Assembly: GCA_963660615.1 (NCBI GenBank)
Contig: CAVKYE010000002.1
Span: 24,073 to 88,072 of the forward strand
Reading direction: 5' to 3'
Origin: Vescimonas coprocola
Lineage (GTDB): Bacteria; Bacillota_I; Bacilli_A; RF39; UBA660
Length of the DNA stretch: 64,000 nucleotides
The translations under genes and the position numbers were made by a program. Of the stretch, positions 3,841-30,017 are shown piece after piece. How positions within the stretch are numbered: position 1 is the stretch's first letter; every line of letters begins with the position of its first letter. The notes under the pieces were generated by a model. That model worked only from the letters and a program-made list of their open reading frames with translations, did not search any database and was not told the origin of the DNA.

Positions 3841-3852
3841 AAACATTCAAGG

Positions 3853-3957: not shown

Positions 3958-4632
3958 ATGAAAATATTAATAATCGAAGACGAAATAAGCCTATCAGACA
4001 TAATAAAAGAAAGACTAAAAAAAGAATCATTCCAAGTAGATACAGAAACAGATGGACTAGAAGGCTACTATAAAGCAAGCACAAATATTTACGACCTAAT
4101 CATATTAGACGTCATGCTTCCAAAAATGAATGGTTTTCAAATTCTAAAAAAGTTAAGAGAAGAAAAAATAAACAGCAAAATAATTATGCTAACAGCCCGC
4201 TCATTAATAGAAGACAAACTAAACGGCCTAGAAAATGGAGCCGATGACTACCTAACCAAACCATTTCACATAGACGAACTAGTAGCCAGAATAAAACTAA
4301 GATTAAAACTAGAAAACAAAGATACCTTAACCTATAAAGATATAAGTTTAAATACCAAAACAAAAACACTAACATGTATAAAAACAAACCAAACCGTCTG
4401 CCTAGTTCGTAAAGAATTTCTGTTAATCGAATGTTTTCTAAATAATCAAAACCAAATCATCACCAAAGAATACCTATACGATAGAGTATGGGGACTAGAA
4501 AACGAAATAGAATCAAACAACCTAGAAGTATATCTATCATTTATAAGAAAAAAACTAAAAGCCACAGGCTCAAAAGTAAACATCAAATCAGCAAGAGGAC
4601 TAGGCTATAAAATGGAGTACAAAAATGAATAA
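3958..4632 (+). CDS. OmpR/PhoB-family response regulator
   Basis: Receiver domain (ILIIEDE, DLIILDVMLPKMNG, TKPF) plus a winged-helix output domain (ARGLGYK). Confidence 0.9.
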   Translation: MKILIIEDEISLSDIIKERLKKESFQVDTETDGLEGYYKASTNIYDLIILDVMLPKMNGFQILKKLREEKINSKIIMLTARSLIEDKLNGLENGADDYLTKPFHIDELVARIKLRLKLENKDTLTYKDISLNTKTKTLTCIKTNQTVCLVRKEFLLIECFLNNQNQIITKEYLYDRVWGLENEIESNNLEVYLSFIRKKLKATGSKVNIKSARGLGYKMEYKNE

Positions 4633-13443: not shown

Positions 13444-13468
13444 ACTTAAGGAAACCCCTTAAGTTTTT
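13444..13468. terminator. bidirectional intrinsic terminator between convergent genes
   Basis: Stem acttaagg / ccttaagt flanked by an A run and a T run. Confidence 0.65.
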
Positions 13469-15206
13469 AATTATTAAAATATACAAATTTATTAAGTTTA
13501 TAAACCACACCATTTATCTTAATATAAATATAATACTTACCATTTAGTCCAGTCTCATTAATATAAGTCTCAGTCTTAATTTTCGCATTATCCCCATTTT
13601 TATCATCTTTAATATATGGTGTATCCGAAATCTTAACATCATAAGTTTTTTTATCAAGAATATTGTCTAAAATAATTTGAACATCATCACTTTTCTTAAA
13701 CGTTCCAGTAACCGTAAGCCTATTAACATCCTTATATAACTTCAAGTCATATTTAGAATAAATAGAATCAGATGTTTTATGGAAAAATACACTGTGATTA
13801 ATAGCTAAATCACTTTCTGGTAAAATACCAACTCTATTTCCAGCACCGCTAGTAAAAGAATCACCCGCATAAACATTAAGTAACTTCGCACTATATAAAG
13901 AAGAAGAAACATTCAAAACATCCAAAACCGAGTCAGAATAAACGCTAACCTTACTTCCTTGACTAATCACAAATCCCAAATCTTTATTATAAGATAAACT
14001 GCCATCACCACTAGAGCCCAAATCAATATCTAAAACCATATAAGCATTTTTACCATCAATTTTATATTCAATCAAATGATTAGAACTATCTCTATTAATA
14101 AAAGCAATACCATCATCAGTCTGAATAACCGTTTCTGGATTCTTAGGATACACAAAATCATCATCAGTCTTTAATAAATATTTCTTATACTTTTTAGATA
14201 CACTGTCAGAAGAAGCAATAATATAATTAATCTCTCCACTAGTATAATCAATATTCATAATAAAATTTTTCTTACCACCACTTACAGTAATTGAATTAGT
14301 CTTAGCATCATAAAAAAGTCCATTTAAACCAAACCAATCATAACCAGAATCATTTGGCATCAAATTATATAAATCAAATTTCTTTATAATCTCACCAGTA
14401 GACCTATCAATTTCAACAATATAATCTTCAACCGTTCCACCTTCAAAATTATTAGAAGCAACTAAAAGATTACCACTAGAAAGTTCATAAACACAATGAT
14501 GATATCCTCCAGAAACATTATATTCTGTATAAATTTTACCAAGCAGATCAATTTCCACTAAAGAATCAGAATAATAAGGCTTATTTACTAAACTATCACC
14601 ACTAAGTAAAATATGACCGTTAGAAAGCCTTGTAAACTCCCAACCATAATTTTTAAGTAAAACCCATCTTACATTACCATTTCTATCATAAGCAATAGGG
14701 TAATTAAAATCACTATATGTCGTAAAATAAAAATCATCAGTATCCAAAGAAGAAGTACTAGAAGCATTTTTAATACCATCAGGCAAAGCCTTAGTCTTAA
14801 TCTTTAAAGTCTTACTCTCATCACCCGTAGAAATAATAACCGTATTATTGTAATCCGCATAAAGCCCATAAACTGGAATCAAATGCAACTTAGAAGGAAT
14901 AAATGTATTAACAATATCATTATCATCATCCCTTCCCTTAACAGTCAAAGTAACGCTCGTTAAATCCTTAGTCTCAAAAACAACCAAAGCCGTAAGAGGA
15001 GAAACCCCATATGGATCCAAAACAACATTAGGATTATCAATTGTATAATCCGTACTACTTAAAAAAGCATTTTCTTGATTTGATTGAATAGTCAAAACAT
15101 CATCATAAGTATCAACCGAAGTAAAAGATTCAACATAATTATAAATCAAAATAGAAGTAAGACAAGTAACCAAAATCAAAATAATATATTTATATTTACT
15201 TTTCAT
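13467..15206 (-). CDS. arylsulfate sulfotransferase (ASST)-like secreted beta-propeller protein
   Basis: N-terminal TM/signal, DPYGVSPLTALVVFET near the N-terminus, and repeated blade-like segments with YHHCVYEL. Family assignment from motif recall. Confidence 0.6.
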   Translation of the reverse strand: MKSKYKYIILILVTCLTSILIYNYVESFTSVDTYDDVLTIQSNQENAFLSSTDYTIDNPNVVLDPYGVSPLTALVVFETKDLTSVTLTVKGRDDDNDIVNTFIPSKLHLIPVYGLYADYNNTVIISTGDESKTLKIKTKALPDGIKNASSTSSLDTDDFYFTTYSDFNYPIAYDRNGNVRWVLLKNYGWEFTRLSNGHILLSGDSLVNKPYYSDSLVEIDLLGKIYTEYNVSGGYHHCVYELSSGNLLVASNNFEGGTVEDYIVEIDRSTGEIIKKFDLYNLMPNDSGYDWFGLNGLFYDAKTNSITVSGGKKNFIMNIDYTSGEINYIIASSDSVSKKYKKYLLKTDDDFVYPKNPETVIQTDDGIAFINRDSSNHLIEYKIDGKNAYMVLDIDLGSSGDGSLSYNKDLGFVISQGSKVSVYSDSVLDVLNVSSSLYSAKLLNVYAGDSFTSGAGNRVGILPESDLAINHSVFFHKTSDSIYSKYDLKLYKDVNRLTVTGTFKKSDDVQIILDNILDKKTYDVKISDTPYIKDDKNGDNAKIKTETYINETGLNGKYYIYIKINGVVYKLNKFVYFNN

Positions 15207-15911: not shown

Positions 15912-16049
15912 TTAATTATTACTACCAAAAGATCTTGCCCCAATAATAATAACTAATAAAATAAATAAAACAAGAACAATAGCAGCACCATATCCAGTAC
16001 CATAATTAGCACTACCATAAGGCACTCCACATCCATATGCTTGTATATA
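15912..16049 (-). pseudogene. C-terminal part of a split YjcZ-type tiny sporulation membrane protein
   Basis: The minus-strand frame reads YIQAYGCGVPYGSANYGTGYGAAIVLVLFILLVIIIGARSFGSNN*. It has no start codon of its own and begins inside the left junction repeat. The Gly/Tyr-rich stretch followed by a ...VLFILLVIIIG helix matches the YjcZ family pattern. Confidence 0.6.
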
Positions 16050-16064
16050 CCTTAGGCGTAGAAA
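16035..16064. repeat. left junction (attL-like), 30 bp
   Basis: atatgcttgtatataccttaggcgtagaaa is the exact reverse complement of 29962-29991. Palindromic core gtatatac at 16043-16050. Confidence 0.8.
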
Positions 16065-16065
16065 G

Positions 16066-17081
16066 TGAAATCTTATAAAGGGCTTATAATACAGGGCAAA
16101 AATAGAAAATCGAAAAAAATTGTTTGGGCAAAAAATCGCAGTTGTTTCAAATTCTTTTTTTGTTTTGGTTGTAAAAATATCTAAAAGTTCTTTTCTAAGC
16201 TCTTCGTTAGTTGTTATATGATGAATAGCTTGCTTAAAGTGGAACTCACAAAAATATTTTCTATTTTATCAAAGTCATATTTTTATTATAAAACATTGAC
16301 AATTTGTTCCCACGGATTACTACCATATACAGTCTTTACTGTTTTGTTTTTTCAAAGCATTTCTATGCTTTCCAACTTTTTCTACGCCTTCAAAAGCAAT
16401 CATACATTTAGCCATTATATCATTTTCTAAATCTTGGCAGCCTAAAAACTTTTCATCAGCCATTACATAAAGTGTTTTAGGAGTATCTACTGGTTCATAA
16501 ACAGATTTTGGTGCTTTCCATTCGTTAAGCCAATTATAAATCGATTGCCTAGAAATATGGAGTAATTTTCTATCTAAGCATAGCTCTTTTAAAGTACTTA
16601 TTTGTTCACCAGTTTCTCTCCCAGCTTTAGCTTGATCAAGAGAAACTGCTTTATCAATCGCCATACCTTTAACGATAGGATCATAATGGTCATATTTGGG
16701 CAGTCCAAAAACATAATCGATGAAAAATAATTTAGATTTATTTAGTTTGGAAACATAATAATTTCTATTAAATGTTATCTCTCCAAAAGGGGTAACTAAA
16801 GTTCTTCTTACCTTGGATTTATTGATATAGTACTTTGCTTTTCTTTCGTGTGACATTGAGTACGCATTATCAATTTCTTCAAAGGTATCAACTAATACTT
16901 TTAATATCAAATTGCGTGTTTGTTCTTGTATTGTAGATACTAGCGAAAAATATTTGTTTGAGTTATCCACCATCGTAAGTGACTTAATTATTTCGTTGAC
17001 AAAAGCATCAGTAATTGATAAGATGTTTTCTTTCAATCTTTTTTTTAATAAATTTTGACAAAAATGTGGTATACTATTCAT
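16066..17081 (-). pseudogene. ISLre2/UPF0236-family transposase remnant (truncated or frameshifted)
   Basis: The 253-aa ORF 16320-17081 (..TLVTPFGEITFNRNYY.., ..LYVMADEKF..) resembles the N-terminal half of UPF0236/ISLre2 transposases. A further open, Met-less frame (CEFHFKQAIHHITTNEELRKELLDIF...) continues to the element edge. Full-length relatives are about 450 aa. Confidence 0.55.
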
Positions 17082-17215
17082 GGAAAAACCTTCTTTCGTG
17101 TAATTTTTTTGGTGAAAATATTATATCAGGTTTTTCCTTTTTTTGTATTCCGAAACTATTTTACACTATCACAAATGATATAAATTTTGAATATATTAAA
17201 ACTTTTGATAAAATA

Positions 17216-17563
17216 ATGATTGAAAGATTTTATACTAATTCAAAAATTTTATATCCATATATTGAAGACATAATTAATAGATATAATGTCAATATTTTAA
17301 AATTTAATATCGATAATAAGAATGACGTGGATATGTTGTTCGACTTATTAAGATGTGCTGTAACATCAAATTGTTCTGAATTGGATTTTTTATACCAATT
17401 ATATGGAGACATAGAGGATTTAAAAAAGCAAAAATCTGGAGATGAGTATTATATTTTTACCGACTATAAAATAAAATGGAGAATTGCTTTCAAGGAAATG
17501 GACAAAAAGTATAGTGCTTGTGAGATGATTTTAGGAATAAATAATTTGAAGAAAAAAGAGTAG
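17216..17563 (+). CDS. hypothetical protein
   Basis: An internal ATG was chosen because the upstream part of the track ORF overlaps the transposase remnant. No motif recognised and the SD is weak. Confidence 0.35.
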   Translation: MIERFYTNSKILYPYIEDIINRYNVNILKFNIDNKNDVDMLFDLLRCAVTSNCSELDFLYQLYGDIEDLKKQKSGDEYYIFTDYKIKWRIAFKEMDKKYSACEMILGINNLKKKE

Positions 17564-17575
17564 GATGAGGGGGAA

Positions 17576-17827
17576 ATGAATTATATAGATGTTTTGCGTG
17601 AGATTACAAATATTACAATGTGTACGTCGATAACACTTTTAATTATTTTGTTGTATAAAGTATTGTTTTTAGATTATTTAGATAGACACAAAGTATTAAA
17701 TAAGATTATCGATAACCTATTTGCGCTTTTAATTATTTTAGACGTTTTCTCAATGATTTTTATAGTGGCTTTTCCAAATGTGATTTCAGTAGTTAATAGT
17801 TTGTTTGAAAAAATATTTAATTTGTAG
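17576..17827 (+). CDS. hypothetical small membrane protein
   Basis: SD gagggggaa upstream. Two hydrophobic helices (ITMCTSITLLIILLYKVLFL and LFALLIILDVFSMIFIVAF). Confidence 0.4.
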   Translation: MNYIDVLREITNITMCTSITLLIILLYKVLFLDYLDRHKVLNKIIDNLFALLIILDVFSMIFIVAFPNVISVVNSLFEKIFNL

Positions 17828-17974
17828 TCAAAATGAAAAAATATTATTTTATTAGTTTTGCGTAGAATAGGTATGGGATTCTTCCTCCAAAAAATAAGGT
17901 TTATACTTTAAGTCATTGTGATATAAAGCAAAGAATAGTCAAAATTTCCGTGATTATAATGCATTAAAAATGTA

Positions 17975-18003
17975 TTGACAATTAATCAAATCGATGTTAG
18001 TAT
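17975..18003 (+). promoter_or_regulatory. sigma-A type promoter of the cargo operon
   Basis: TTGACA (17975-17980), a 17-nt spacer, then TAGTAT (17998-18003). Confidence 0.5.
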
Positions 18004-18039
18004 ATTTACATTGGTGGAAAATCATCAATGAGGTGAAAT

Positions 18040-18138
18040 ATGATAAATAGTGATGAGAAATTTATGATATGTTTTGATTATATATTATTTAGCGATAATA
18101 ATAAATTTTTACTGACTAAAAAAAATGAGAGCAATTAA
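18040..18138 (+). CDS. candidate 32-codon leader ORF (MINSDEKFMICFDYILFSDNNKFLLTKKNESN)
   Basis: GAGGTG SD 5 nt upstream. The stop codon lies inside the 5' arm of the downstream terminator stem. Confidence 0.3.
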   Translation: MINSDEKFMICFDYILFSDNNKFLLTKKNESN

Positions 18139-18162
18139 CTTTAGGGTTGATTGTCTCTTTTT
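18127..18162 (+). terminator. leader terminator/attenuator upstream of the cargo operon
   Basis: gagaGcaattaact-ttag-gggttgattgtctc forms about 13 bp with one bulge and two G-U pairs. It is followed by TTTTT and lies 19 nt before the operon ATG. Confidence 0.5.
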
Positions 18163-18180
18163 AAAAAATTAGGAGGTTTT

Positions 18181-18762
18181 ATGATTTATTTTATTTGCGG
18201 ACATAGGGGTTGTGGGAAAAGTTATTTAGTAAGTCAACTTAAAGAAACTATCAAGTGTAAAGTTTATGATACAGGTCCTATATTAAGAAACGAGTATAGA
18301 AAATTTAGTTTGAATTCTGATGTGCCATTTGGAGAGTGGGTTGAAATTAATGAGCAAACGTATGGTGAAAATTTTACAAATCAAGTTATTTGCGAAAATA
18401 TGAATTTAAATTTAGATGAAACAAATATCATTATTGGAAATAGATCGATGATTGGAATAAAATATGCTATTGAATATTTTGGTATAGATAATTATAAAAT
18501 ATGTTTTATTGATGGTGATTTTGACTTGTTTAGGTTAAATTATAATAAAAGAGAAAAATCAAATTTAGATGAAGAAGAGTTTGGGAAAATTATAGCATTA
18601 GAAAATAGTATGGGGATAGAAGAAATAGAACGTTTTGTAAAAAGTAATCCAACTATTGGGTTATATTTTTATAAAGAGACTAATGATGACTTAATATTTC
18701 AAACTATTTTGGAAGACATTAACAATACAAAACCAAAGGTAAAAAAAAGGAGTGAATTATAA
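18181..18762 (+). CDS. P-loop kinase, nucleoside-monophosphate-kinase-like
   Basis: Strong AGGAGG SD. Walker A GHRGCGKS at the N-terminus. VYDTGPILRNEY is reminiscent of the adenylate-kinase NMP-binding STGD.LR motif. The track TTG start at 18151 was rejected. Confidence 0.55.
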   Translation: MIYFICGHRGCGKSYLVSQLKETIKCKVYDTGPILRNEYRKFSLNSDVPFGEWVEINEQTYGENFTNQVICENMNLNLDETNIIIGNRSMIGIKYAIEYFGIDNYKICFIDGDFDLFRLNYNKREKSNLDEEEFGKIIALENSMGIEEIERFVKSNPTIGLYFYKETNDDLIFQTILEDINNTKPKVKKRSEL

Positions 18763-19407
18763 ATGATGGATTGGTATGATGTTTATTTAGAACAAATAAA
18801 TAAAAGTGGTGGAGATAAATCTTATATGGCATTTAAGATTTATCACAAGAAAAAATTGTTGAAAATTTTAAGAAAATATAGTGGAAAAGGGAAATTAATA
18901 GAGGCAGGATGTGGAACAGGTATTATAACTTCACAGTTAGCCAATGAAGGCTATGATGTGACTGGTGTAGATATAAATAAAAAAATATTGAAATTATGTA
19001 AAAAATTAGAAAAAGAATATTTTGGTACTAATAAGGCTAAATATGTTGAAAAATCAATATTTAATTTGGACTTTCCCAAAAAAAGTTTTGATTTATGTTT
19101 TAGTTGTGGTGTTTTGGAGCATTTTGAAGACAATGAAATAATTAATTCAATAAAACAGCAAATAATGATAGCAAATAAGGTAATTATTGTTATACCCACA
19201 AAATGGTTTGATGATGAAGAGGCATTACACGGGGATGATAGATTTTTAAAACTTTCATATTGGAGAAAATTAATTAAAACAAGTGGTGGAAAAATAATAA
19301 AAGAATATTCATACCCTTTTAAGCAAAAATATTATCAAAAAATAAAAAATATTAGAAAAATATTCAGGCCTAAAGCATATAGAGTTTTTGTTGTAGAAGA
19401 AGGTTAG
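18763..19407 (+). CDS. class I SAM-dependent methyltransferase
   Basis: Motif I LIEAGCGTGIIT, then the acidic loop DVTGVDIN and motif FDLCFSCGVLEHF. The start abuts the upstream stop. Confidence 0.85.
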   Translation: MMDWYDVYLEQINKSGGDKSYMAFKIYHKKKLLKILRKYSGKGKLIEAGCGTGIITSQLANEGYDVTGVDINKKILKLCKKLEKEYFGTNKAKYVEKSIFNLDFPKKSFDLCFSCGVLEHFEDNEIINSIKQQIMIANKVIIVIPTKWFDDEEALHGDDRFLKLSYWRKLIKTSGGKIIKEYSYPFKQKYYQKIKNIRKIFRPKAYRVFVVEEG

Positions 19408-19411
19408 TAAG

Positions 19412-21118
19412 ATGGAAAAAAAGTTTCCAATAATAAAAGCAGGACATATATTTAACCCCTATAAAATAGAAGGTGTAGCAGAATTAAAATTAGATTCTAT
19501 AGTATTAAATTACCCTTGTAGATTAGATGCAATGGCTATAAACCCAGCAGCAGTTGTATATAACTCTGATATGGTATTTACCCCAGGCGAAGTAGTTGTT
19601 TCATTAAATAAATACATAAAAGTAACAATAAAGGTTTTATCTGAAAAAGGTGGGAAAATAATAATTTCAGAGAAAACAAAAAGAAAAGTATTAGTCAAAC
19701 ATTCTTATTTATTGATGTGTTCCGCATTAAATGTCTTTCCTTCTCTGGAAATAGATGTAGATGATAATAATATTCCTAAACATCGTGGATTTGGCTCTAG
19801 TAGTTCTACAATTAGTGCGGTAGCCGCAGCAATAAATGAATTATATGGTTGTCCTATAAAAAATGGCGATTTAATTAAATATTTGGCTTCTAATCACGGA
19901 GAAGAAATAAGTGATGATGATGAAGAAAATTTAAAAGTTGTTCAATGCATTGGAGGGGGTGCTACTAACGGTTTAACAAAGGAAGGAATAATTATTATAG
20001 CCGGTAAATCTACGACTATAGGAAAGTTAGAATATAGCGGTGATGTTTTAATTGGAGTGCCTAAAGATTTTGTGCAGAAAGATGCTAAAGTATTGATGGA
20101 ATTGGAAGAACAAAATCTATGGAAATTTAAAAAAACAGGTGAAGATTATGCTGAAAATATTGCCTATAATTTATTACATAAGGCTTTACCTGGGTTGGCT
20201 AACGGAGATATAAAAGAGTTGGCGGATGTAGTATATGAATATAGATTCAATATGGGAAGTAATGAAAATTGTTCTTTTGTTTATGATGGATTAGTTGAAT
20301 TAGGAAATAATTTAAGATGCTTATACGAGAATAAAGATTGTGAATTTTTAGCGCTATCTTCTGTTGGCCCTGCTTTCTTTGTTATAGTTAATAATGAAAG
20401 ACAAAAACAAAAATGTAAAAATAAAATGGAAGAATTAGCGATGAATGTAATAGAATCGTCAATATGTAATACTACATATCTAATAGAAGAAAAAGAAGAT
20501 AAAAAAATATATTGGCAAGAACAAACAACAAATATTGCGTTTTCGAATAAAGAGCCTTCTAAATATATTACAGATGTTTTAGAAAAAATTGATTTAAAAA
20601 ATAAAAATTGTATAGATATTGGTTGTGGTGGAGGAAGATATACAAAGTATCTTCAAAAAAGAGAAGCCAATGTTTTGGCAATAGATAAGTACCCAGAAAT
20701 GATAGGAAATGTTTATTCACAAAAAATAAATTTTATTAATTGTGATATGAATAATATTCCTGTAAAAGATGATTCATATGATTTAGTACTATCAATTGGT
20801 GTTATACATAATGCGATAACAGTAGATGAGTTTTATAAATCAATAGACGAGATATATAGGATTGCTAATGAGAGCGGTAACGTTGTTTTGTCCTTATTTA
20901 CAAATGATATAATTACAGATGATCTAATAGAATATGGACCAAATTTATATAAAATTAAAAATAGACCACCAATGGTATTATTTTCAAAAGAACAAATAAC
21001 AAAAATATTAAAAGAAAAAAATTTGCATATAGTAAAAGTTATAGATGAACATATAACAGATGTTGGCGGTGGTAAAAGAAATGTTTATACATTATTATTG
21101 GAAAAAAAAGTTATATAA
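19412..21118 (+). CDS. fusion protein: GHMP-kinase-superfamily (beta-RFAP-synthase-like) domain + class I SAM methyltransferase domain
   Basis: The N-terminal ~360 aa carry YPCRLDAMAINPAA and the phosphate-loop-like IPKHRGFGSSSSTISAVAAAINELYG. The C-terminal ~190 aa carry motif I CIDIGCGGGRYTKYL and YDLVLSIGVIHN. Confidence 0.6.
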   Translation: MEKKFPIIKAGHIFNPYKIEGVAELKLDSIVLNYPCRLDAMAINPAAVVYNSDMVFTPGEVVVSLNKYIKVTIKVLSEKGGKIIISEKTKRKVLVKHSYLLMCSALNVFPSLEIDVDDNNIPKHRGFGSSSSTISAVAAAINELYGCPIKNGDLIKYLASNHGEEISDDDEENLKVVQCIGGGATNGLTKEGIIIIAGKSTTIGKLEYSGDVLIGVPKDFVQKDAKVLMELEEQNLWKFKKTGEDYAENIAYNLLHKALPGLANGDIKELADVVYEYRFNMGSNENCSFVYDGLVELGNNLRCLYENKDCEFLALSSVGPAFFVIVNNERQKQKCKNKMEELAMNVIESSICNTTYLIEEKEDKKIYWQEQTTNIAFSNKEPSKYITDVLEKIDLKNKNCIDIGCGGGRYTKYLQKREANVLAIDKYPEMIGNVYSQKINFINCDMNNIPVKDDSYDLVLSIGVIHNAITVDEFYKSIDEIYRIANESGNVVLSLFTNDIITDDLIEYGPNLYKIKNRPPMVLFSKEQITKILKEKNLHIVKVIDEHITDVGGGKRNVYTLLLEKKVI

Positions 21119-22181
21119 ATTATCTAACAGAGATTATTTATGTGATTATTCAAAAATTGAGTCAAAAACAATAGATATGACATTATCAGGAAGATATTTA
21201 TCATCATACCCAAACGTTCAAATATCTATTTCAGAATTTGATAAATATCCTCTATTGACCAACATTAGGGAGTTAGAAGAATTAATTAAGACAAAAACAT
21301 CGACAAACGATGAGATAATAATTGGCAGTGGAGCAAATGGATTATTACAGAATATAATTAAAATATTTTTTAGAAATAGAGGTAATTTAATAACATCATT
21401 TTATTCGTTTGATCAAGCGGAGTATGCAGTAACTTCATTTGATGGAGTAACAAAAAGAGTATATACAAACAATTACAGTTTAGATTTAAACAATGTTATA
21501 AAGGCGATTGATAAGAAATCAAAAATGATTTATATTTGTAATCCGAATAACCCAACAGGAAAATTTATTAATTCAAAAGACTTAATAGAGTTAACAAAAA
21601 AAACAAAAATACCGTTAGTAGTGGATGAATCTGGAATAGAATTTACAGGTAAGAAAGGAATTTTAGAATCAGTACAAAAATTACCTGAAAATTTATTGGT
21701 ATTAAGATCATTTTCTAAAGCATACGGATTAGCAAATTTAAGAATAGGTTATTTAGTTTGTTCAAGGGCATTTAAACAAATTTATCTTAAAAACATAACA
21801 ACTAATGAATATTCTGGGATTTCCTGTTTAATAGCAAAAAATATATTAAATTCATCCGAAAAATATATGGAACAGAATGTTAATCAAATAATAGAAGAAA
21901 AAGTAAAAATGGTAAATCAATTAGAAAAGATGGGTATATATACTGTAGAAAGTTATTCTAATACTATTTTCACCAAAACAATTTTTGATAATAAATTTAT
22001 GAAAGAGTTAGAAAAGAATGATATATCGGTTGTACCCATTTATGATAGAAATAATAATTTACATATTCGTATTGCAATTCAAGATAAAGAAACTAATTCA
22101 GTATTTGTAAAAAAAATGAATGAAATAATGAAAAATAAGAAACTGGTGTTAGGAAAAGAAGAAGATAGAGGTGATATTTAA
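21081..22181 (+). CDS. class I/II PLP-dependent aminotransferase, histidinol-phosphate aminotransferase (HisC)-like
   Basis: ICNPNNPTGKFI, LVVDESGIEF and the Schiff-base lysine motif LRSFSKAYGLANLRIGY. The start is uncertain (21060 or 21081; 21081 follows GGTGGT). Either start overlaps the upstream gene. Confidence 0.85.
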   Translation: MFIHYYWKKKLYKLSNRDYLCDYSKIESKTIDMTLSGRYLSSYPNVQISISEFDKYPLLTNIRELEELIKTKTSTNDEIIIGSGANGLLQNIIKIFFRNRGNLITSFYSFDQAEYAVTSFDGVTKRVYTNNYSLDLNNVIKAIDKKSKMIYICNPNNPTGKFINSKDLIELTKKTKIPLVVDESGIEFTGKKGILESVQKLPENLLVLRSFSKAYGLANLRIGYLVCSRAFKQIYLKNITTNEYSGISCLIAKNILNSSEKYMEQNVNQIIEEKVKMVNQLEKMGIYTVESYSNTIFTKTIFDNKFMKELEKNDISVVPIYDRNNNLHIRIAIQDKETNSVFVKKMNEIMKNKKLVLGKEEDRGDI

Positions 22182-23338
22182 TGAAAATATCTTTAGCAAC
22201 TAATTTTGATGATGAATTAATTGATGGGATAAAAAATTATCCTGTATATGAAATATATGGTAAATTAAAAAATGATTTCATCGGTGGTGGAAGACCGGAT
22301 AATGATTTAATAGATGTCCAAAAGGAAAGATTTGAAAGACATATAAAAAAGACTAGAGAAGCTGGAATTAAATTTAATTATTTATTAAATGGTAGTTGTT
22401 TGTCAAACAATGAGCAAGATATTGGTTGGCAGAAAAATTTCAAAGATTTTTTAGATTATTTAAAATCAGTTGGAGTAAATGCTTTGACAGTAACTAATCC
22501 ATATATATTACAATTTATAAAAAAATACTTTAAAAATGATTTTACTGTTAGAATTTCTACTTTTGCTTGTATTGACTCTTTTGAAAAAGCAAAGTATTGG
22601 GAACAAATGGGAGCAGATTATATTTGCGTTGATTTTGTTAAAATAAACCGTGATTTTAAAACTTTAAAATATATGGTTGAAAATTTGAAAAAATCAAAAA
22701 TAGAAATTTTAGTTACAAATAGTTGTTTGAAAAATTGTCCTATGATTTATACGCACACTAATGGACTAGCCCACGCTTCTATGAAAGACAATAAAACAAG
22801 TGCTTACGAAGATTGGAGTTTATTTTATTGTCAAAAAAAAGAATTAGAAAATTTAGAAGAATATATAAAATCTCCCTGGGTAAGGCCTGAAGATATAAAA
22901 TATTATGAAGAAATAGGAATAGAGCATTTTAAGATTACAGAAAGAGATTTTCCTACATCAGAATTAATAAAAAGAGTAAAGGCTTATACCGAAAGAAAAT
23001 ACAATGGAAATTTATTAGATCTTATACAAGGTCACGGTTGTCTAGCAAAAAGTAATCTGACGTTAGTAAAAAATGAAGTTTCAACAAGAAAAGAAATATA
23101 TGACGAAATAAAGAGAGTAAGAGGATTAGGAAAAGTTAGAGAATGTGAAAGACACATATTTATTGATAATACCAAATTAGATAATTTTATTAAATTTTTT
23201 CTAGAAAATAAATGCACAAATCAATGCGATAAATGTAATTACTGTAAAAAAATATCTAATAGTGTAATCACAAAAAATGAGGATATATGTGAATATTTAA
23301 AATATTTATATAATAAATATGATGATATTAAAATGTAA
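22181..23338 (+). CDS. U32-peptidase-family-like TIM-barrel protein with Cys clusters (possible Fe-S enzyme)
   Basis: ISLATNFDDELID..YGKL..FIGGGRP, FNYLLNGSC and EILVTNSCLKNCP resemble a U32 subfamily. The C-terminal end carries CTNQCDKCNYC (CX3CX2CX2C). TAATG overlap with the upstream gene. Family call is tentative. Confidence 0.5.
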   Translation: MKISLATNFDDELIDGIKNYPVYEIYGKLKNDFIGGGRPDNDLIDVQKERFERHIKKTREAGIKFNYLLNGSCLSNNEQDIGWQKNFKDFLDYLKSVGVNALTVTNPYILQFIKKYFKNDFTVRISTFACIDSFEKAKYWEQMGADYICVDFVKINRDFKTLKYMVENLKKSKIEILVTNSCLKNCPMIYTHTNGLAHASMKDNKTSAYEDWSLFYCQKKELENLEEYIKSPWVRPEDIKYYEEIGIEHFKITERDFPTSELIKRVKAYTERKYNGNLLDLIQGHGCLAKSNLTLVKNEVSTRKEIYDEIKRVRGLGKVRECERHIFIDNTKLDNFIKFFLENKCTNQCDKCNYCKKISNSVITKNEDICEYLKYLYNKYDDIKM

Positions 23339-23484
23339 TTTTTTATGGATAAAATAATAGCATTGATATACTAAATATCATCGTCGAGGATTAACCGGAT
23401 TCGACGAAATAAATGTATACAGTAAAGAAATAAAAGTCTTACGTATATACATAAGATTATGATAAAAATAGGAGGAATTAAAAA

Positions 23485-24072
23485 ATGAAAAAACTAATTT
23501 ATTTAACCACAAATCCTCATAAGGTTGAGGAAGCAAATGAATTTTTTGGAAAAAAGTATGGATTTAACATAGAGATAGTGAATCCTGATTTTGAAATATT
23601 GGAGATACAAGCCGAAAAATGTTCGGAAGTAGCAGCATTTAGCGCTAAATATGCTGCTGATAAATTAGGATGTGCTGTCTTAAAATCTGATTCAGGACTT
23701 TATATAGATGCATTAGGAGGATTACCAGGACCATACAATCATTATTTTGATAAACAGATTGGTGTAGAAAAATTTTTAGAGTTATTTAAAGACGAAACAA
23801 ATAGAAAGGCAAGATTAGAACATTGTTTTGCCTATTGTGAGCCAGGCGAAGATCCAATTGTATTTAGTGGTGGAGGCACTGGAACTATTGCTTATAAGGC
23901 TGAAGGCCAAAGAGGAAGATGGCACGATAAATTTTATATACCCGATGGAGAAGAACAGACATTGAGTGTATTAAGGGATATTGATTATGAAAAAGAAGCA
24001 TCATATTGGGGAGATGCTAAAGATCAATTTGCTAAATGGTATTCTGAAAAATACAAAGATGAATTAAAATAA
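23485..24072 (+). CDS. HAM1/ITPA-type non-canonical NTP pyrophosphatase
   Basis: TTNPHKVEEANEFF (TxNxxKxxE), KSDSGLYIDALGGLPGPY, and RWHDKFYIPDGEEQTLS, which aligns with the ITPA-type GWDPCFQPDGYEQT. Confidence 0.85.
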   Translation: MKKLIYLTTNPHKVEEANEFFGKKYGFNIEIVNPDFEILEIQAEKCSEVAAFSAKYAADKLGCAVLKSDSGLYIDALGGLPGPYNHYFDKQIGVEKFLELFKDETNRKARLEHCFAYCEPGEDPIVFSGGGTGTIAYKAEGQRGRWHDKFYIPDGEEQTLSVLRDIDYEKEASYWGDAKDQFAKWYSEKYKDELK

Positions 24073-24258
24073 TTAAATAAAAAATGTGTAAAAGAAATTC
24101 AAAAATACACGTTTTTTCGAATTCAAATTGTATCAATGAAGACTATAAAATAAGTTGTTCTTTTATACAACAAAATGTGCTAAAAGTTTAATTACTTTAT
24201 TTTCTATCTAATTCGTAAGTTTTGGAGACTGAAAAAATGGCGGAAAGGAATGTTGATT

Positions 24259-24789
24259 ATGGAAAATTTGATTTTAGATGAAGCAGGCTATGCTGCATAT
24301 TTGGAAGATATACATAAACAAGAAGAAAGATTAGCAAAACTAAGAAAATTTAAAGGGGAAGTTGCAATTTATGAAGGAGACGCTTGGCACGATAATTTTA
24401 CTTTTGAACAGACCGAGGCTGAAGAGAGAATGTTAATGGCTGATATTGCAAACAGATATGAAAAACTATCAAAGGCTACGGTTGTGGAGTCTAGCGCCGG
24501 TTTAGGAATTGGTATAAATGACTTGGTTAATATTACTATCACGATCGGAACAAGAGTGAAGGAAATGCATATTTTGATTGTATCATATAAAGATCAAAAT
24601 GAAGATACCGTCGTGTCCGAAATACCTATAAAACAAGTTACTTTGGATAGTCCGTTAGGCAGAGCATTATACCAAAAAGAAGAAGGAGAAGATTTTTCAT
24701 ATAGTGTTGGTGAAAAAAGGATTGAAGGTAAAATTATTTCCGTTGATAAATTTGAACCATTATCTGAAGAAAAAGTAAAAAGGATATGA
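24259..24789 (+). CDS. GreA/GreB-family-like protein (paralog 1)
   Basis: N-terminal coiled coil with GDAWHDNFTFEQTEAEER in place of the Gre GDLSENAEY tip. C-terminal domain with VTLDSPLGRALYQKEEGEDFSY. Second ATG chosen for SD spacing. Confidence 0.7.
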   Translation: MENLILDEAGYAAYLEDIHKQEERLAKLRKFKGEVAIYEGDAWHDNFTFEQTEAEERMLMADIANRYEKLSKATVVESSAGLGIGINDLVNITITIGTRVKEMHILIVSYKDQNEDTVVSEIPIKQVTLDSPLGRALYQKEEGEDFSYSVGEKRIEGKIISVDKFEPLSEEKVKRI

Positions 24790-24879
24790 TACTTGCAATA
24801 AAAATAATGAAATATGTTGTTTATGATTACAATTCTACTAAATAGTATTTCGATTTGCAAATGAATAAATCGAAAATAA

Positions 24880-24923
24880 AAGAATGATATAAATTTAGTG
24901 ATTATTGTTATCATTCTTTTTTT
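24880..24923 (+). terminator. intrinsic terminator
   Basis: 10-bp stem aagaatgata / tatcattctt followed by TTTTT. Confidence 0.7.
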
Positions 24924-25063
24924 GTTTTAGATTTATAAAAATTAAGAAATGTATTGAAACGAAAAAAATGTTAATTTGATTTATTTTAAATTATTTACTT
25001 ATCTGATATATAATAGTATAATCTGATAAAGGATAATTTTATAAGGTTGAATGGAGAATCAGT

Positions 25064-25537
25064 ATGGATAAAATATATATGACAAAAGAAGGTTATGACA
25101 AAAAAATAAAAGAATTTGAAGAAACAAAAAGATTATTAAAAGAAACATCAAAAAATAAAATAGAAGCAGCCTATGATGGCTCTGGTGATACTTGGCACGA
25201 TAATTTTACTTATGAACAGTTAGATTTACAAGAAACAGGACTCCTATCGCGATTGGAAAGTATGCAGGAATTATTAAGTAATGTGGAAATTGTTGAAAAA
25301 AAATCATTAGAGAATAATGTTGTTAATTTAGGAGATCGAATTGCAATTGAGATATACTATGAAGATGGTGAATGTGAAGCATTGGATGTGATTCTTGACG
25401 AGTCGACAGAAGATGAAAATGCTGTGACTTTGAGTTCTCCATTAGGAAAAGTTCTTTATATGTCAAAAATTGGAGATAAACGTACATATTTAGTTAACGG
25501 TAGCACAAATACTGTTATTATAAAAGATAAGTTATAA
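25064..25537 (+). CDS. GreA/GreB-family-like protein (paralog 2)
   Basis: GDTWHDNFTYEQLDLQE tip motif. C-terminal VTLSSPLGKVLYMSKIGDKRTY. Confidence 0.7.
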   Translation: MDKIYMTKEGYDKKIKEFEETKRLLKETSKNKIEAAYDGSGDTWHDNFTYEQLDLQETGLLSRLESMQELLSNVEIVEKKSLENNVVNLGDRIAIEIYYEDGECEALDVILDESTEDENAVTLSSPLGKVLYMSKIGDKRTYLVNGSTNTVIIKDKL

Positions 25538-25707
25538 TATGCGTAATGAAAGAAAATTATAATTAATACACATACTTATTTTATAATATGCTAATAAAAA
25601 AGATTTAAGTGCTATATTATAAACTCTTAAATTTTTAAAATTACTAGAATATCGTATGTAAAAACATCATGTGAAATATATGGCAGTATTTGATATTTAT
25701 ATTTAAA

Positions 25708-25739
25708 CAAAAAAACTATGACTTAACGATAGTTTTTTT
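25708..25739 (+). terminator. intrinsic terminator
   Basis: aaaaaaactat / atagttttttt stem with a 9-nt loop. Confidence 0.6.
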
Positions 25740-25955
25740 CGTTCAAGCAACAAAACACTACTTTCAAGCATAAAATAGTCACAATTTTAAAAATTTAATT
25801 ATAATAGCCCTCCTAGTGAGGTTTGTTATATGGCGGATTCTTTTTCATTTGAAAAAGAATATAGAGGGGAACAAGTAAATATTTTTTATAAAAGAGGCAA
25901 TTTGTCTATTTTTAGATACTTTGTCTCTTTTTTTGTATTCGTTTTTATCAGAGGA

Positions 25956-25991
25956 CCTCCTTTTAACGATTTTAAATTCGTTAGAAGGAGG
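25956..25991 (+). promoter_or_regulatory. 14-bp hairpin that sequesters the Shine-Dalgarno of the sigma-like gene and is followed by a T run
   Basis: CCTCCTTTTAACGA-ttttaaat-TCGTTAGAAGGAGG (one G-U pair), then TTTTGTT. The 3' arm contains GGAGG. Confidence 0.55.
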
Positions 25992-26000
25992 TTTTGTTAT

Positions 26001-26612
26001 ATAGAAAGGCCAAAAAGAAGAAAAGATAAATATAATCCTTATGTTATTTCTATAGAGGATAATATATACAAAGTTTCTTTTAAAGATGTTAAAGGCAAAA
26101 TACAAATAGTCATAATAACAAGAGAAATTTTTGATTTATTGAATACTTTTGAATTAGAAGATTTATCTATAATGAATGAATATGATAATCACATTGAACA
26201 TAGTGAGTTAATGGAACATAATTTATATGTTAGAGCAAAAGAAAAGCCATTGAGTATAGAAAATGAAGTAATGAAGAAAATATCTTTTGAAATTTTGAAA
26301 GAAGCAATATCTATGTTGCCTGATATACAAAGACGTCGAATTAAAAAATATTATTTTGAGGATAAGACTGAGCAACAAATAGCCGATGAAGAGGGAACAA
26401 CCCATCAAGCAGTACATACTATATTAGAAAGAGCAAAAAATAATTTAAAAGAAATTTTAAAAAATTTAATTAAGTGTTTGCAATTTAGCGTTTTAGTTAG
26501 GAAACAAGTGAAAGGGTATTTATTATTCTTTCTCCTGTTTCCTTTTTGTTTTGGTAATAGGATGTTGTTCTTTGAAACCTTAATACGCATTCATCAAATA
26601 CATTCCTATTAA
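26001..26612 (+). CDS. sigma-70 region-4 / HTH regulator typical of clostridial serine-recombinase elements
   Basis: ERPKRRKDKYNPYVISIEDNIYKVSFKD... and LPDIQRRRIKKYYFEDKTEQQIADEEGTTHQAVHTILERAKNNLKEIL (region 4.2-like HTH). There is no in-frame ATG/GTG/TTG near the SD. The first plausible codon is ATA at 26001 and the next ATG is at MNEYDNH. Confidence 0.55.
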   Translation: MERPKRRKDKYNPYVISIEDNIYKVSFKDVKGKIQIVIITREIFDLLNTFELEDLSIMNEYDNHIEHSELMEHNLYVRAKEKPLSIENEVMKKISFEILKEAISMLPDIQRRRIKKYYFEDKTEQQIADEEGTTHQAVHTILERAKNNLKEILKNLIKCLQFSVLVRKQVKGYLLFFLLFPFCFGNRMLFFETLIRIHQIHSY

Positions 26613-26658
26613 AAATAGCACGTTAGTAAGTGCGCTTGCGATAAACACTTGACTATAA

Positions 26659-26677
26659 AATTAGGTAGCACCTAATT
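26659..26677. promoter_or_regulatory. palindromic operator-like site AATTAGGT-AGC-ACCTAATT
   Basis: Perfect 8-bp arms overlapping a TTGACT hexamer upstream of mazF. Confidence 0.45.
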
Positions 26678-26680
26678 TGC

Positions 26681-26706
26681 AAAGACATTTAATAAAGACA
26701 TTTAAT
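26681..26706 (+). repeat. tandem 13-bp direct repeat (aaagacatttaat x2)
   Basis: Two exact adjacent copies, read directly. Confidence 0.6.
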
Positions 26707-26792
26707 AGAATTAAAGATACTCCTGTCTCGCCATAATCTCAAATAATGGAGGCAGCCTAGAGAGAACCTCTAGAAGGTGTAATTCTTGTGAT

Positions 26793-26811
26793 ATTGAATT
26801 AGCAATTCAAT
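26793..26811. promoter_or_regulatory. palindromic operator-like site ATTGAATT-AGC-AATTCAAT
   Basis: Perfect 8-bp arms with the same AGC spacer as the site at 26659. Confidence 0.45.
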
Positions 26812-26907
26812 AGTTTGATGAATCCCATATTGTGGGGCTAGAGGATAAATAACAATAAGAAATAATAAAAGGGATATATTCCCTAATTACATATTAAGGA
26901 GGAAAAA

Positions 26908-27264
26908 ATGAACACATTAAAAGGAAGCATATATTATGCGGATTTAGATCCTGTTATAGGAAGCGAACAAGGAGGAATACGTCCAGTTGTTATTCTGCAA
27001 AATAGTATTCAAAACTATTATAGTGAAACAACGGTAGTTGCACCTATCACTACAAAAGTTAAAACCGGAGGCTTTCACGTCTTTTTAAAAGCGGATAAAA
27101 CATTAAAGAATGATTCAGTAATATTGTTAGAACAGATACGAACTATTGATAAATCGCGTCTACTAACTTATATAGGTAAACTTTCACAAGAACATTACAG
27201 AAAAGTGAATAACGCCTTAAAGAAAATGTTCTATTTAGATTGGGAAGTACACAATGTAAAATAA
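26908..27264 (+). CDS. MazF/PemK-family endoribonuclease toxin
   Basis: GSIYYADLDPVIGSEQGGIRPVVILQN...VVAPIT...DSVILLEQIRTIDKSRL. Strong AAGGAGG SD. Confidence 0.9.
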   Translation: MNTLKGSIYYADLDPVIGSEQGGIRPVVILQNSIQNYYSETTVVAPITTKVKTGGFHVFLKADKTLKNDSVILLEQIRTIDKSRLLTYIGKLSQEHYRKVNNALKKMFYLDWEVHNVK

Positions 27265-27472
27265 TTTGTTGCACCAATTATGTGATGATATAAGTTAAAA
27301 TAATTAATTATGTAGGTATCAAAGGAATTAAGAACTAATACTATATTTTAGCCACCACTAAAACAACGTGGCAAATAATAAAAAGCATTTTACTATGTTT
27401 TTTATTTTGTCGTAAATAGAAGAAAAAAAGAATAATATTTAATAGAAAATTATCATATGAAAGGAGCATGGG

Positions 27473-27673
27473 ATGAAAACATATAAAGTAAAAGTGAAGT
27501 TGCAGACAAATATTGATGTATCTGCTACAAGTAAAGAAGAATCAATCGAAAAAGTAAAAAAATTAATAAAGGACTGCGTTAACGAAAAAACATTTGAAGC
27601 CCTAAAAAGCCTATTGATAGAATGCAGTGAAATAAAATATACTTCAAAACTTATAAAAAAAGAACATCGTTAA
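27473..27673 (+). CDS. hypothetical 66-aa K/E-rich protein
   Basis: AAAGGAG SD. No family recognised. Confidence 0.45.
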   Translation: MKTYKVKVKLQTNIDVSATSKEESIEKVKKLIKDCVNEKTFEALKSLLIECSEIKYTSKLIKKEHR

Positions 27674-27696
27674 CAAAAAGTATAGGGGGTAAAAAG

Positions 27697-27795
27697 ATGT
27701 ATGAAATTATAAATGTTTTTTCAAGCACAGATGAACTAAAACAAGAAAATTTTAATAAAGTATTAGCAGAATTAATTTTCAAACTAGAAAATAAC
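27697..27795 (+). CDS. candidate 32-aa ORF (MYEIINVFSSTDELKQENFNKVLAELIFQTRK)
   Basis: GGGGGT SD-like sequence 6 nt upstream. Located immediately upstream of the recombinase gene. Not in the ORF track because it is too short. Confidence 0.3.
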
Positions 27796-27881
27796 ACCAC
27801 CACACATTTGAATCTTGAATAATCTCATAATATGATTATTTCGTATTATAAGCCATTAACGAAAGGTAGAGTGATAATACT

Positions 27882-29951: not shown

Positions 29952-29961
29952 AAAAACTTTT

Positions 29962-29991
29962 TTTCTACGCCTAAGGTATATACAAGCATAT
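29962..29991. repeat. right junction (attR-like), 30 bp
   Basis: tttctacgcctaaggtatatacaagcatat is the exact reverse complement of 16035-16064. Core gtatatac at 29976-29983. Confidence 0.8.
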
Positions 29992-30017
29992 CCTTGATAT
30001 CCGCCATAATAATACAT
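29976..30017 (-). pseudogene. N-terminal part of the split YjcZ-type gene
   Basis: The minus strand reads aggaggaataatt-ATG then MYYYGGYQGYACIY, running into the junction core. As integrated it reads on into the element (..LRRRKKVFLKIPFK*). Confidence 0.55.

Follow-up and report, generated by a model that had tools for sequence, protein, structure and literature searches.

Formycin and pyrazofurin are made with the C-glycoside synthases ForT and PyfQ, and methanopterin with the RHP/beta-RFAP synthase, all of them proteins of the GHMP fold. In ForT, the C-glycoside synthase of formycin, His-99 binds the pyrophosphate of phosphoribosyl pyrophosphate (PRPP), Thr-106 binds PRPP, Arg-19 in the first strand is essential for PRPP binding, and the 5′-phosphate site contains Arg-135, Ser-139 and Ser-142 (PMC8183095). 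The 64,000-nucleotide stretch of contig CAVKYE010000002.1 analysed here (the window, to which all coordinates without a locus number refer) contains six genes, G1–G6, at 18181–24072, and the third of these has an N-terminal domain of the same GHMP fold. We propose, with a little less than even confidence, that the six genes constitute a self-contained, horizontally transferable operon that makes and controls a non-canonical ribonucleotide with an aromatic-derived base. In its mode of working the operon appears closest to the C-nucleotide pathways of ForT/PyfQ and to the RHP/beta-RFAP step, while failing the cut-offs of each family to which it is likened. It is filed here under nucleotide-analogue biosynthesis with a dedicated nucleoside triphosphate (NTP) pyrophosphatase, with a real chance that the product is something more unusual.

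Unlike ForT, PyfQ and beta-RFAP synthase, G3 is fused to a methyltransferase, and its partners (a U32-family protein, a HisC-like aminotransferase, a nucleoside monophosphate (NMP) kinase-like protein and a HAM1-family pyrophosphatase) are unlike the formycin, pyrazofurin and methanopterin gene sets. The hosts also differ, being uncultured gut Firmicutes and Patescibacteria, whereas those of ForT and beta-RFAP synthase are actinomycetes or methanogens. Other parts of the operon recall other systems. As in the UbiU/UbiV–UbiG/UbiE and TrhP–TrmR/CmoB groups, a U32 gene stands beside class I methyltransferases in an operon, and as for UbiU/V and TrhP the U32 enzyme is swapped for an O2-dependent enzyme in other lineages, here a PrnB/IDO-like haem protein; however, the proposed substrate is neither a polyprenyl quinone nor RNA. 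The proposed pathway would also hydroxylate before it methylates, like UbiU/V–UbiG, and would include a house-cleaning enzyme comparable to ITPA. Pairs of GHMP-fold and NMP-kinase-fold enzymes are known from mevalonate kinase with the animal-type phosphomevalonate kinase and, with MfnE, from methanofuran biosynthesis. The operon resembles these relays in having both folds in what would be one pathway acting on phosphate esters, but the relays lack the HAM1, NUDIX and nucleoside-diphosphate kinase (NDK) links, the aromatic front end and the methyltransferase that the operon has.

The initial annotation of this DNA did not recognise the gene set as a described pathway, and this has held through each search. 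A full-text literature search yielded no paper describing the gene set, megablast of 18000–24200 against plasmids and phages gave no match, viral contigs scanned with protein patterns contained no match to a relative, and Rfam shows no riboswitch upstream of the operon either in the window or in 20 related loci. PADLOC, run with the six operon genes and two neighbouring Gre-like genes, returned only generic methyltransferase similarity to mad2.

Organization of the operon

The six genes are all on the + strand, with junctions and motifs as first described; their coordinates come from the list of open reading frames (ORFs) of the window and from independent gene calls on identical contigs. No + strand terminator-like site is present within the G1–G6 block. 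The features are:

17975–18003, + strand: promoter-like site upstream of G1 (TTGACA-17-TAGTAT with extended TG; a consensus match only)
18181–18762, + strand: G1, NMP-kinase-fold P-loop protein of 193 aa with motifs GHRGCGKS and YDTGPILR
18763–19407, + strand: G2, stand-alone class I S-adenosylmethionine (SAM) methyltransferase, its start abutting the end of G1
19412–21118, + strand: G3, GHMP::methyltransferase fusion of 568 aa, following G2 after a 4-nt gap
19412–20500, + strand: N-terminal GHMP-fold domain of G3, of the homoserine-kinase/ForT/beta-RFAP-synthase branch
20501–21118, + strand: C-terminal domain of G3, a class I SAM methyltransferase
21081–22181, + strand: G4, HisC-like pyridoxal phosphate (PLP) aminotransferase of 366 aa carrying SFSKAYGLANLRIGY and overlapping G3 by 38 nt
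22181–23338, + strand: G5, U32-family TIM-barrel protein overlapping G4 by 1 nt
23485–24072, + strand: G6, HAM1/ITPase-family NTP pyrophosphatase, following G5 after a 146-nt gap

The original family assignments stand, supported by Pfam and NCBIfam for G2–G6 and by the NMP-kinase fold of a predicted model for G1. Structure prediction with fold search, which had been suggested as a check, gave that fold for G1 and the GHMP fold for the N-terminal domain of G3.

Conservation, co-occurrence and gene fusions

Whether the genes travel together in other genomes had been left for checking, and the set recurs in approximately 40 loci (numbered L); in the window and in L019 it is carried by integrative elements, and in many other loci it has an ordinary chromosomal setting. 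Relatives of the G3 fusion protein form at least 471 clusters at 90% identity, nearly all of them gut-metagenomic, and 33 loci came from a scan in which each species was represented by a single genome. The hosts are uncultured metagenome-assembled genomes (MAGs) labelled Mollicutes/Tenericutes, Bacilli and Clostridia, together with Patescibacteria that include an 805-kb chromosome and a Woesebacteria MAG. In a tblastn comparison of 40 loci including the window, several of which are short contigs or near-duplicates of one another, G3 is present in 40, G4 in 34, HAM1 in 33, G5 in 32 and G1 in 29, the last count rising when divergent and fused copies are included. The GHMP domain family is small, with 179 members among 1.84 billion representative proteins at E≤1e-3.

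Gene order is shuffled among the ~40 loci, which argues against simple inherited synteny, and recurrence with shuffled order, together with gene fusions, places the grouping above chance. The fusions, which are independent of one another, include G1::HAM1 (389 aa; L006), HAM1::GHMP (588 aa; L032), NUDIX::GHMP::methyltransferase (731 aa; P0095/L008) and PrnB::GHMP (P0148, 726 aa, and also P0145). In P0145 a HEPN/Toprim N-terminal domain precedes the PrnB::GHMP portion. In L129 the gene set comprises a G1 homologue, a HAM1 gene, PrnB::GHMP, a methyltransferase and a nucleoside-diphosphate kinase; the PrnB/IDO-like haem enzyme and GHMP occupy coordinates 1745–3925 of that locus.

The invariable core of the operon is the GHMP domain, the methyltransferase, the NMP-kinase-like protein and the HAM1-family pyrophosphatase, the last belonging to a subfamily with the motif GRWHD except in four Patescibacteria-type loci. 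The front end of the operon is exchangeable. HAM1 had been counted with the set from the start, and its presence in 33 of the 40 loci, its fusions to the kinase (L006) and to GHMP (L032) and its distinct subfamily all bear this out. With at least 471 clusters of the fusion protein and 798 of the HAM1 subfamily, the operon occurs often in the gut metagenomes of humans and animals. Its hosts have very small genomes and no cultured members, and a conserved set of up to ~8 kb is unlikely to be idle in them.

Accessory genes include those for NUDIX proteins, a cytoplasmic M23-like domain, a radical SAM protein, GNATs and glycosyltransferases, and a DAHP synthase gene is present in seven loci, in one case inside the cluster. 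The M23-like domain is fused to G1 in six loci (L011, 7177–8355; L013, 13912–15096; L014, 19437–20591; L015; L021; L038). It is encoded by a free-standing gene in L006, L009, L010, L016, L018, L029 and L043, and the window contains neither form. Both metal motifs of this M23 (LytM-type) domain, HxxxD and HxH, are retained, and a conserved stretch of ~60 aa extends it at the C terminus.

A subclade formed by L013, L021, L030 and L038 has no HAM1 gene inside the locus and carries two GNAT acetyltransferases, a GT4 glycosyltransferase and a 160-aa protein (L013, 17400–17891) with weak resemblance to CYTH (triphosphate tunnel) proteins. This protein was considered as a replacement for HAM1 and set aside as a hint only, the Pfam E-value being 0.002 and a profile search against PDB sequences giving no support. 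Just upstream of the operon in L014 (7748–9218) and in L018 are a gene that, on sequence reading rather than a family-library scan, we take to be S-adenosylmethionine decarboxylase-like, a separate 371-aa gene, a LysR regulator and a deoxynucleoside kinase-like kinase.

The HAM1-family pyrophosphatase

Enzymes of the HAM1/ITPA type clear non-canonical NTPs, and we know of no HAM1 enzyme with activity on anything other than nucleoside triphosphates. Like ITPA, RdgB and PH1917, G6 has a full-length Ham1 domain (Ham1p_like, PF01725; 1.2e-29, 103.9 bits, profile positions 2–186 of 186), and among solved structures it is nearest to two archaeal NTPases, PH1917 and Mj0226. It falls below the equivalog cut-offs, with 136.5 bits against 203 and 110 bits against 145. 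Alignment to PH1917 shows the base-pocket motif GRWHDKF in place of GFGYDP, and the replacement of GFGYDP by GRWHD[KR]F distinguishes these proteins from ITPA, RdgB and PH1917, as do the fusions to pathway enzymes in some genomes.

The motif G[RN]WHDxF is found in all operon-linked HAM1 proteins of the Firmicutes-type loci and of the PrnB-type loci L035 and L129, and the L129 protein (GRWHDLF) is 66% identical to G6 of the window. It is absent from the HAM1-like genes of the Patescibacteria-type loci L034, L036, L037 and L039, whose products are 24–33% identical. L042 has two HAM1 genes 10 kb apart (3590–4144 and 14083–14670), one with GWSWDFIF and no GRWHD motif and the other of the operon type with GRWHDKF, such that the operon HAM1 is a second copy beside a motif-less one, again unlike the situation of ITPA, RdgB and PH1917. 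In L043 both copies carry the operon-type motif. Comprising 798 clusters, the subfamily is a large one, and its conservation is unusual, far exceeding that of its operon partners. Judged by its motifs, G6 represents a distinct HAM1 subfamily with a remodelled base pocket. This specialised enzyme offers a handle on the product, which its substrate preference should reveal.

The kinase-like protein and the methyltransferases

In Pfam, G1 is matched only by AAA_17 and below threshold (18.9 bits against 27), and there is no match to it in NCBIfam or among PDB sequences. Its predicted model has a pLDDT (predicted local distance difference test) of 91.7 and the NMP-kinase fold. The best Foldseek match is 3lw7 (TM 0.72/0.80), an adenylate-kinase-related protein of Sulfolobus with AMP bound, followed by adenylate and UMP/CMP kinases. 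The Walker A loop is GHRGCGK[SN], some homologues having N in place of S/T, and an alignment of homologues shows conserved DTGPIxR and GNRS motifs; these probably sit where NMP kinases hold the arginines that contact the acceptor phosphate.

G2 is a class I methyltransferase by Pfam; as an accessory gene, it is missing from some of the loci. The C-terminal methyltransferase domain of G3 (Pfam 1e-16) is encoded as a separate gene in Patescibacteria.

The GHMP-fold domain: synthase or kinase

The N-terminal domain of G3 matches GHMP_kinases_N in Pfam (1.3e-10), and its AlphaFold model (pLDDT 88.5) has the GHMP fold. The top Foldseek TM-score is to ForT (8aoz; 0.65/0.71), the best structural superposition obtained, at a sequence identity of ~15%. 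Profile alignment places the G3 loop KH[CS]G[FL]GSSS on PQHSGFGSKTS of ForT, the two sharing an H-x-G-F-G-S phosphate loop. H124 of G3 is invariant in the family and is common to beta-RFAP-like outgroup proteins, a Ser/Thr is present at the position of ForT Thr-106, and S131 is invariant or nearly so from Firmicutes to Patescibacteria. R37 is also invariant and lies on the strand of residues 29–41 of the model, the first strand, as does Arg-19 of ForT, a correspondence read from the strand and not from a residue-by-residue alignment. The nearest outgroup proteins (24–29% identity) mostly score best on beta-RFAP-synthase models, and two kinase-like proteins among them, P0277 and P0291, lack the His before the glycine loop.

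Several observations weigh against a PRPP-using synthase. The best Foldseek E-value is to a homoserine kinase (4p52; 2.7e-14), and homoserine-kinase models are the top NCBIfam matches in 12 of 12 family members, all of which score slightly better on them than on beta-RFAP-synthase models. The best E-values for the domain are 1.6e-11 for homoserine kinase and 2.7e-9 for beta-RFAP synthase, both far below cut-offs. At the level of sequence placement, the stretch that would correspond to Arg-135, Ser-139 and Ser-142 of ForT reads NHGEE, without an Arg, and G3 has no evident counterparts of these three residues. The NHGEE..VQCIGGG segment appears to resemble the H-x-D-N..GG segment of homoserine kinases.

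Family models were also tried as arbiter between kinase and PRPP synthase, and the result is a tie. G3 of the window reaches 25.6 bits against a cut-off of 328 on NF040726 (the ForT/beta-RFAP family), and 40.7 bits against 194 and 35.5 bits against 168 on ThrB models; TIGR00144 does not match it and gives sub-cut-off matches in 6 of 12 relatives. The initial description of the domain as beta-RFAP-synthase-like is right as to the ForT-like fold and loop, but scores lie below the family cut-offs and homoserine-kinase models fit slightly better. Fold, loop alignment, outgroup scores, homoserine-kinase scores and the NHGEE segment together place the domain on the homoserine-kinase/ForT branch, and the sequence does not decide between kinase and synthase.

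In the main alternative the domain is a true ATP-dependent kinase and would phosphorylate a new hydroxyl on an aromatic amino-acid derivative, which the fused methyltransferase would then methylate, in the order hydroxylase, kinase, methyltransferase seen in psilocybin biosynthesis. G1 might add a second phosphate, like the NMP-kinase-fold phosphomevalonate kinase or MfnE, and the pathway would end in an aromatic small molecule bearing phosphate and methyl groups rather than in a nucleotide. The homoserine-kinase matches and the NHGEE segment agree with such a pathway, HisC-family enzymes typically take phosphate esters, and the PrnB::GHMP and GHMP::methyltransferase fusions would correspond to consecutive hydroxylase, kinase and methylase steps. 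We nevertheless consider it unlikely, since it leaves no role for the specialised HAM1, which is the tightest-linked partner, is fused to both G1 and GHMP and belongs to a family known only to act on NTPs. The NUDIX fusion and the NDK of L129 are likewise left without a role, and the pre-loop His is a common property of ForT/beta-RFAP-like proteins that is lost in the kinase-like P0277 and P0291.

The exchangeable front end

G4 is always directly downstream of G3 and matches Aminotran_1_2 in Pfam (2.4e-36), with the PLP-lysine motif SFSKAYG present. It scores better on the HisC model (5.8e-50) than on CobD (3.7e-37), although it is below the HisC equivalog cut-off (TIGR01141; 170.1 bits against 276.55), and among solved structures it is closest to HisC of T. 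maritima (7e-20, against 2.7e-13 for CobD). The decarboxylase CobD is more distant from it than either HisC or a phenylalanine aminotransferase.

This bears on the alternative offered in the initial annotation, in which a head group resembling phosphocholine or aminopropanol phosphate is made by a kinase, a PLP decarboxylase and N-methyltransferases. The methyltransferase domain is weakly similar to plant phosphoethanolamine N-methyltransferases, G4 does score on the CobD model, and pssA and psd genes are near the operon in L008. As a main explanation this was rejected because G4 is nearer to HisC than to CobD on both models and solved structures and because some variants have no PLP enzyme at all, the Patescibacteria versions having a PrnB-like enzyme instead. 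Neither a cytidylyltransferase nor a head-group transferase is linked to the operon, and the HAM1, NMP-kinase, NUDIX and NDK links would be unaccounted for. Of the explanations considered it fits worst and is extremely improbable; the NMP-kinase fold, the HAM1, NUDIX and NDK links and the PLP-less PrnB variants all favour a nucleotide over an amino alcohol.

G4 and G5 are both missing from four loci—L034, L035, L036 (Patescibacteria-type) and L129—that have a PrnB/IDO-like haem protein instead (Pfam 3e-29); the lineages showing this exchange are exposed to oxygen. The gene of the haem protein either immediately precedes the GHMP gene or is fused with it, and PrnB-like genes and G4+G5 are mutually exclusive across the loci. 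As PrnB, IDO and TDO act on tryptophan, the compound handed to the GHMP domain is very probably aromatic. The aromatic substrate implied by the PrnB fusion is a further likeness to ForT and PyfQ. Known displacement pairs include UbiH/F/I with UbiU/V and TrhO with TrhP, and the replacement of a U32 enzyme by a haem enzyme here may mirror them, as a naturally occurring case in which an anaerobic and a haem enzyme substitute for each other.

G5 matches Peptidase_U32 (PF01136) with 1.6e-7 and 31.3 bits against a cut-off of 22.4 and has no NCBIfam match. Its nearest solved relative is 5d88, a U32 protein of the archaeon Methanopyrus (M. kandleri) with no assigned function. C182, C186, C217 and H192 are invariant in the G5 family and H198 is nearly so, giving only three invariant cysteines, whereas in UbiU/UbiV, TrhP and RlhA a 4Fe-4S cluster is ligated by four conserved cysteines; an extra C-terminal CX3CX2CX2C motif is confined to the Firmicutes members. 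Prephenate is the oxygen donor of those hydroxylases, and the one hint of it here is the DAHP synthase gene in seven loci.

The characterised U32 enzymes TrhP and RlhA are described in their reports as RNA hydroxylases (PMC6599085, PMC5727448). By analogy, G5 might hydroxylate a pyrimidine of tRNA or rRNA that the methyltransferases then methylate, with HAM1 and the kinase handling turnover nucleotides, and the methyltransferase does give weak matches to the CmoB and CmoM models. RNA modification is nonetheless very unlikely. G5 is remote from TrhP and RlhA, being nearest to the archaeal U32 protein among solved structures; the scheme does not accommodate the GHMP domain, the PLP aminotransferase or the PrnB-like haem enzyme; and the replacement of U32 by a PrnB-like protein that is fused to GHMP points to a small aromatic substrate.

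A proposed pathway to a non-canonical nucleotide

From the observed folds, motifs, fusions, co-occurrence and displacement pattern we infer the following chemical steps for the nucleotide pathway. G4 and G5, the latter as an Fe-S enzyme, would prepare an oxidised or hydroxylated aromatic acid without O2, a PrnB/IDO-like haem enzyme acting as the front end in other lineages. The GHMP-fold domain of G3 would join this acid to ribose 5-phosphate from PRPP, and the fused methyltransferase, together with G2 where present, would methylate the product. G1 would then raise the monophosphate to the diphosphate, and a general NDP kinase would form the triphosphate. G6 would return the triphosphate to the monophosphate, either setting its level or keeping it out of RNA and DNA, and HAM1 may in this way provide self-protection.

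Besides the kinase-like properties of the GHMP domain, several other points count against this scheme. The U32 match of G5 spans only 64 of the 233 profile positions (3–66), a partial match that also distinguishes it from UbiU/V and TrhP. Neither a PRPP synthase nor a glycosidase is linked to the operon, and a kinase and a pyrophosphatase acting on one nucleotide look futile unless tuned. The fusion of the M23-like domain to G1 (six loci) and the DAHP synthase gene (seven loci) are not accounted for.

A more specific form of the proposal, which we hold to be somewhat unlikely as a whole, has as its product a methylated aryl ribonucleotide, possibly C-linked, that reaches the triphosphate and whose level the dedicated ITPase with its rebuilt pocket would set; the interchangeable front ends would be O2-free or O2-using, and the module would move between phyla on integrative elements with Gre-like factors. 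Gre factors bind in the secondary channel of RNA polymerase, and in this form the nucleotide would serve as signal, cofactor or transcription-directed weapon. A new nucleotide, should the product be one, would add a metabolite class to gut microbial chemistry. Such a pathway would also extend ForT/beta-RFAP-type chemistry beyond antibiotics and methanopterin, and would be the first small-molecule, non-quinone role for a U32 enzyme.

The integrated element

In the window the operon lies within a 13,957-bp segment (16035–29991) that is bounded by a perfect 30-nt inverted repeat. As in the skin (SpoIVCA), SPbeta (SprA), fdxN (XisF) and SCCmec (Ccr) elements, a large serine recombinase gene is located at one end. 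The features of the element other than the operon, and of its integration target, are:

15912–16034, − strand: C-terminal part of a split yjcZ-type gene for a tiny membrane protein, the integration target
16035–16064, + strand: left end of the element (attL element-side arm, one copy of the 30-nt repeat), with a GG core outside it at 16033–16034
16320–17081, − strand: UPF0236-family transposase (PF06782) inside the element
24250–24789, + strand: Gre-like factor 1, tip motif GDAWHDNF
25064–25537, + strand: Gre-like factor 2, tip motif GDTWHDNF
25830–26612, + strand: sigma-70 region-4-like regulator of the element
26711–26791, + strand: pemK RNA motif (Rfam RF02913, 41.8 bits), upstream of the toxin gene
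26908–27264, + strand: PemK/MazF-type toxin gene
27882–29951, + strand: large serine recombinase with Resolvase, Recombinase and Zn_ribbon_recom domains, CcrB/XisF-like
29962–29991, − strand: right end of the element (attR element-side arm, second copy of the repeat), with a GG core outside it at 29992–29993
29992–30017, − strand: N-terminal part of the yjcZ-type gene with its ribosome-binding site

The 30-nt repeat has two matches in the window and none in 100 shuffles, and the right copy begins 11 nt past the stop codon of the serine recombinase. Joining the flanks at the GG core gives an in-frame ORF of 48 aa that matches YjcZ_2 in Pfam (22.0 bits against a cut-off of 21); the predicted restored attB junction is TATCAAGGATGTGGAGTG. 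Inside the element (~16–30 kb), and only there, the + strand GC skew is positive (+0.16 to +0.40); it is negative on both flanks, even though the flanking genes run in the same direction as those of the element, and the G+C content is ~3–4 points lower inside. The skew reversal and lower G+C fit a foreign or recently inserted segment. The inverted repeat, GG cores, restored YjcZ_2 ORF, skew reversal and adjacent recombinase mark the operon of this genome as cargo of a serine-recombinase element that has split a yjcZ-type gene.

The label of cargo given in the initial annotation is accordingly right for this genome, where the att sites of the element bracket the operon. The opposite view, that the operon is not mobile-element cargo, had been drawn from the chromosomal settings of other loci and was overturned for the window by the att-site analysis. 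No empty site was found among 13 junction-spanning contigs of the species, the element being kept in all five with FtsW and all eight with Def. Further likenesses to skin/SPbeta-type elements are that the element splits a small gene, here of the sporulation-associated YjcZ family, that the element-side arms form an inverted repeat and that the core dinucleotide is common to both junctions. Unlike skin, SPbeta, fdxN and SCCmec, the element has no phage or conjugation genes, and its cargo is a metabolic operon with Gre-like factors.

A second mobile setting is seen in L019 (G3 58% identical), which has a Gre-like gene, the operon, a regulator 46% identical to the sigma-70 region-4-like protein of the window and a pemK RNA (16688–16768), followed by two tyrosine integrases. 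The module is thus mobile in at least two lineages, which fits its patchy spread across phyla. In several other loci the neighbours are ordinary chromosomal genes, such as tRNA synthetase genes in L004, SMC in L006, CTP synthase in L008 and RelA/SpoT in L043. In L042, whose G3 is 90% identical to that of the window, the operon neighbours are cysteinyl-tRNA synthetase and pyruvate phosphate dikinase.

The two Gre-like genes are tandem paralogues in which the coiled-coil tip reads GD[AT]WHDNF, as against GDLxENAEY in GreA, and the 36-nt stretch that encodes the tip is 89% identical between them. Besides the window, ~11 genome loci and loci of Patescibacteria have Gre-like genes adjoining the operon, the tip in Patescibacteria being [FY]HD[ND]. 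They were considered as obligatory partners and this was rejected, because in a reciprocal scan only ~13 of 80 Gre-like loci have the operon within 10 kb; as the link is partial, the Gre-like factors are not counted in the core.

The genes of the element also bear on a special case of the nucleotide model, in which the product is a toxic analogue used as a weapon against competitors, hosts or phages, and HAM1, perhaps with the Gre-like factors, is the producer's immunity. The operon is on integrative elements with a PemK toxin in the window and L019, Gre-like genes adjoin it in the loci just listed, it is patchy across phyla with HAM1 still 66% identical between distant lineages, and the known ForT-type pathways make antibiotic C-nucleotides (PMC8183095). 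Set against this, the operon has no export gene, many copies sit among ordinary chromosomal genes of small genomes, the majority of such Gre-like genes are away from the operon, PADLOC shows only generic methyltransferase similarity and no relatives were found on viral contigs, so that a toxic analogue is decidedly unlikely. A role in anti-phage or inter-bacterial conflict, suggested initially, is not upheld, given that there is no specific PADLOC match and no viral-contig relative and that chromosomal copies are many.

Among the other genes of the element, the sigma-70 region-4-like gene has a weak HEC-01A match in PADLOC (E 0.00049). The UPF0236 transposase differs in length between strains (253 or 288 aa; L131–L138), and several assemblies break there, which suggests a repeated insertion sequence. 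Just outside the element, a leftwards-transcribed gene at 13467–15206 (− strand) encodes a 579-aa protein of the arylsulfotransferase family (PF05935) with an N-terminal hydrophobic segment, and adjoins a peptide deformylase gene.

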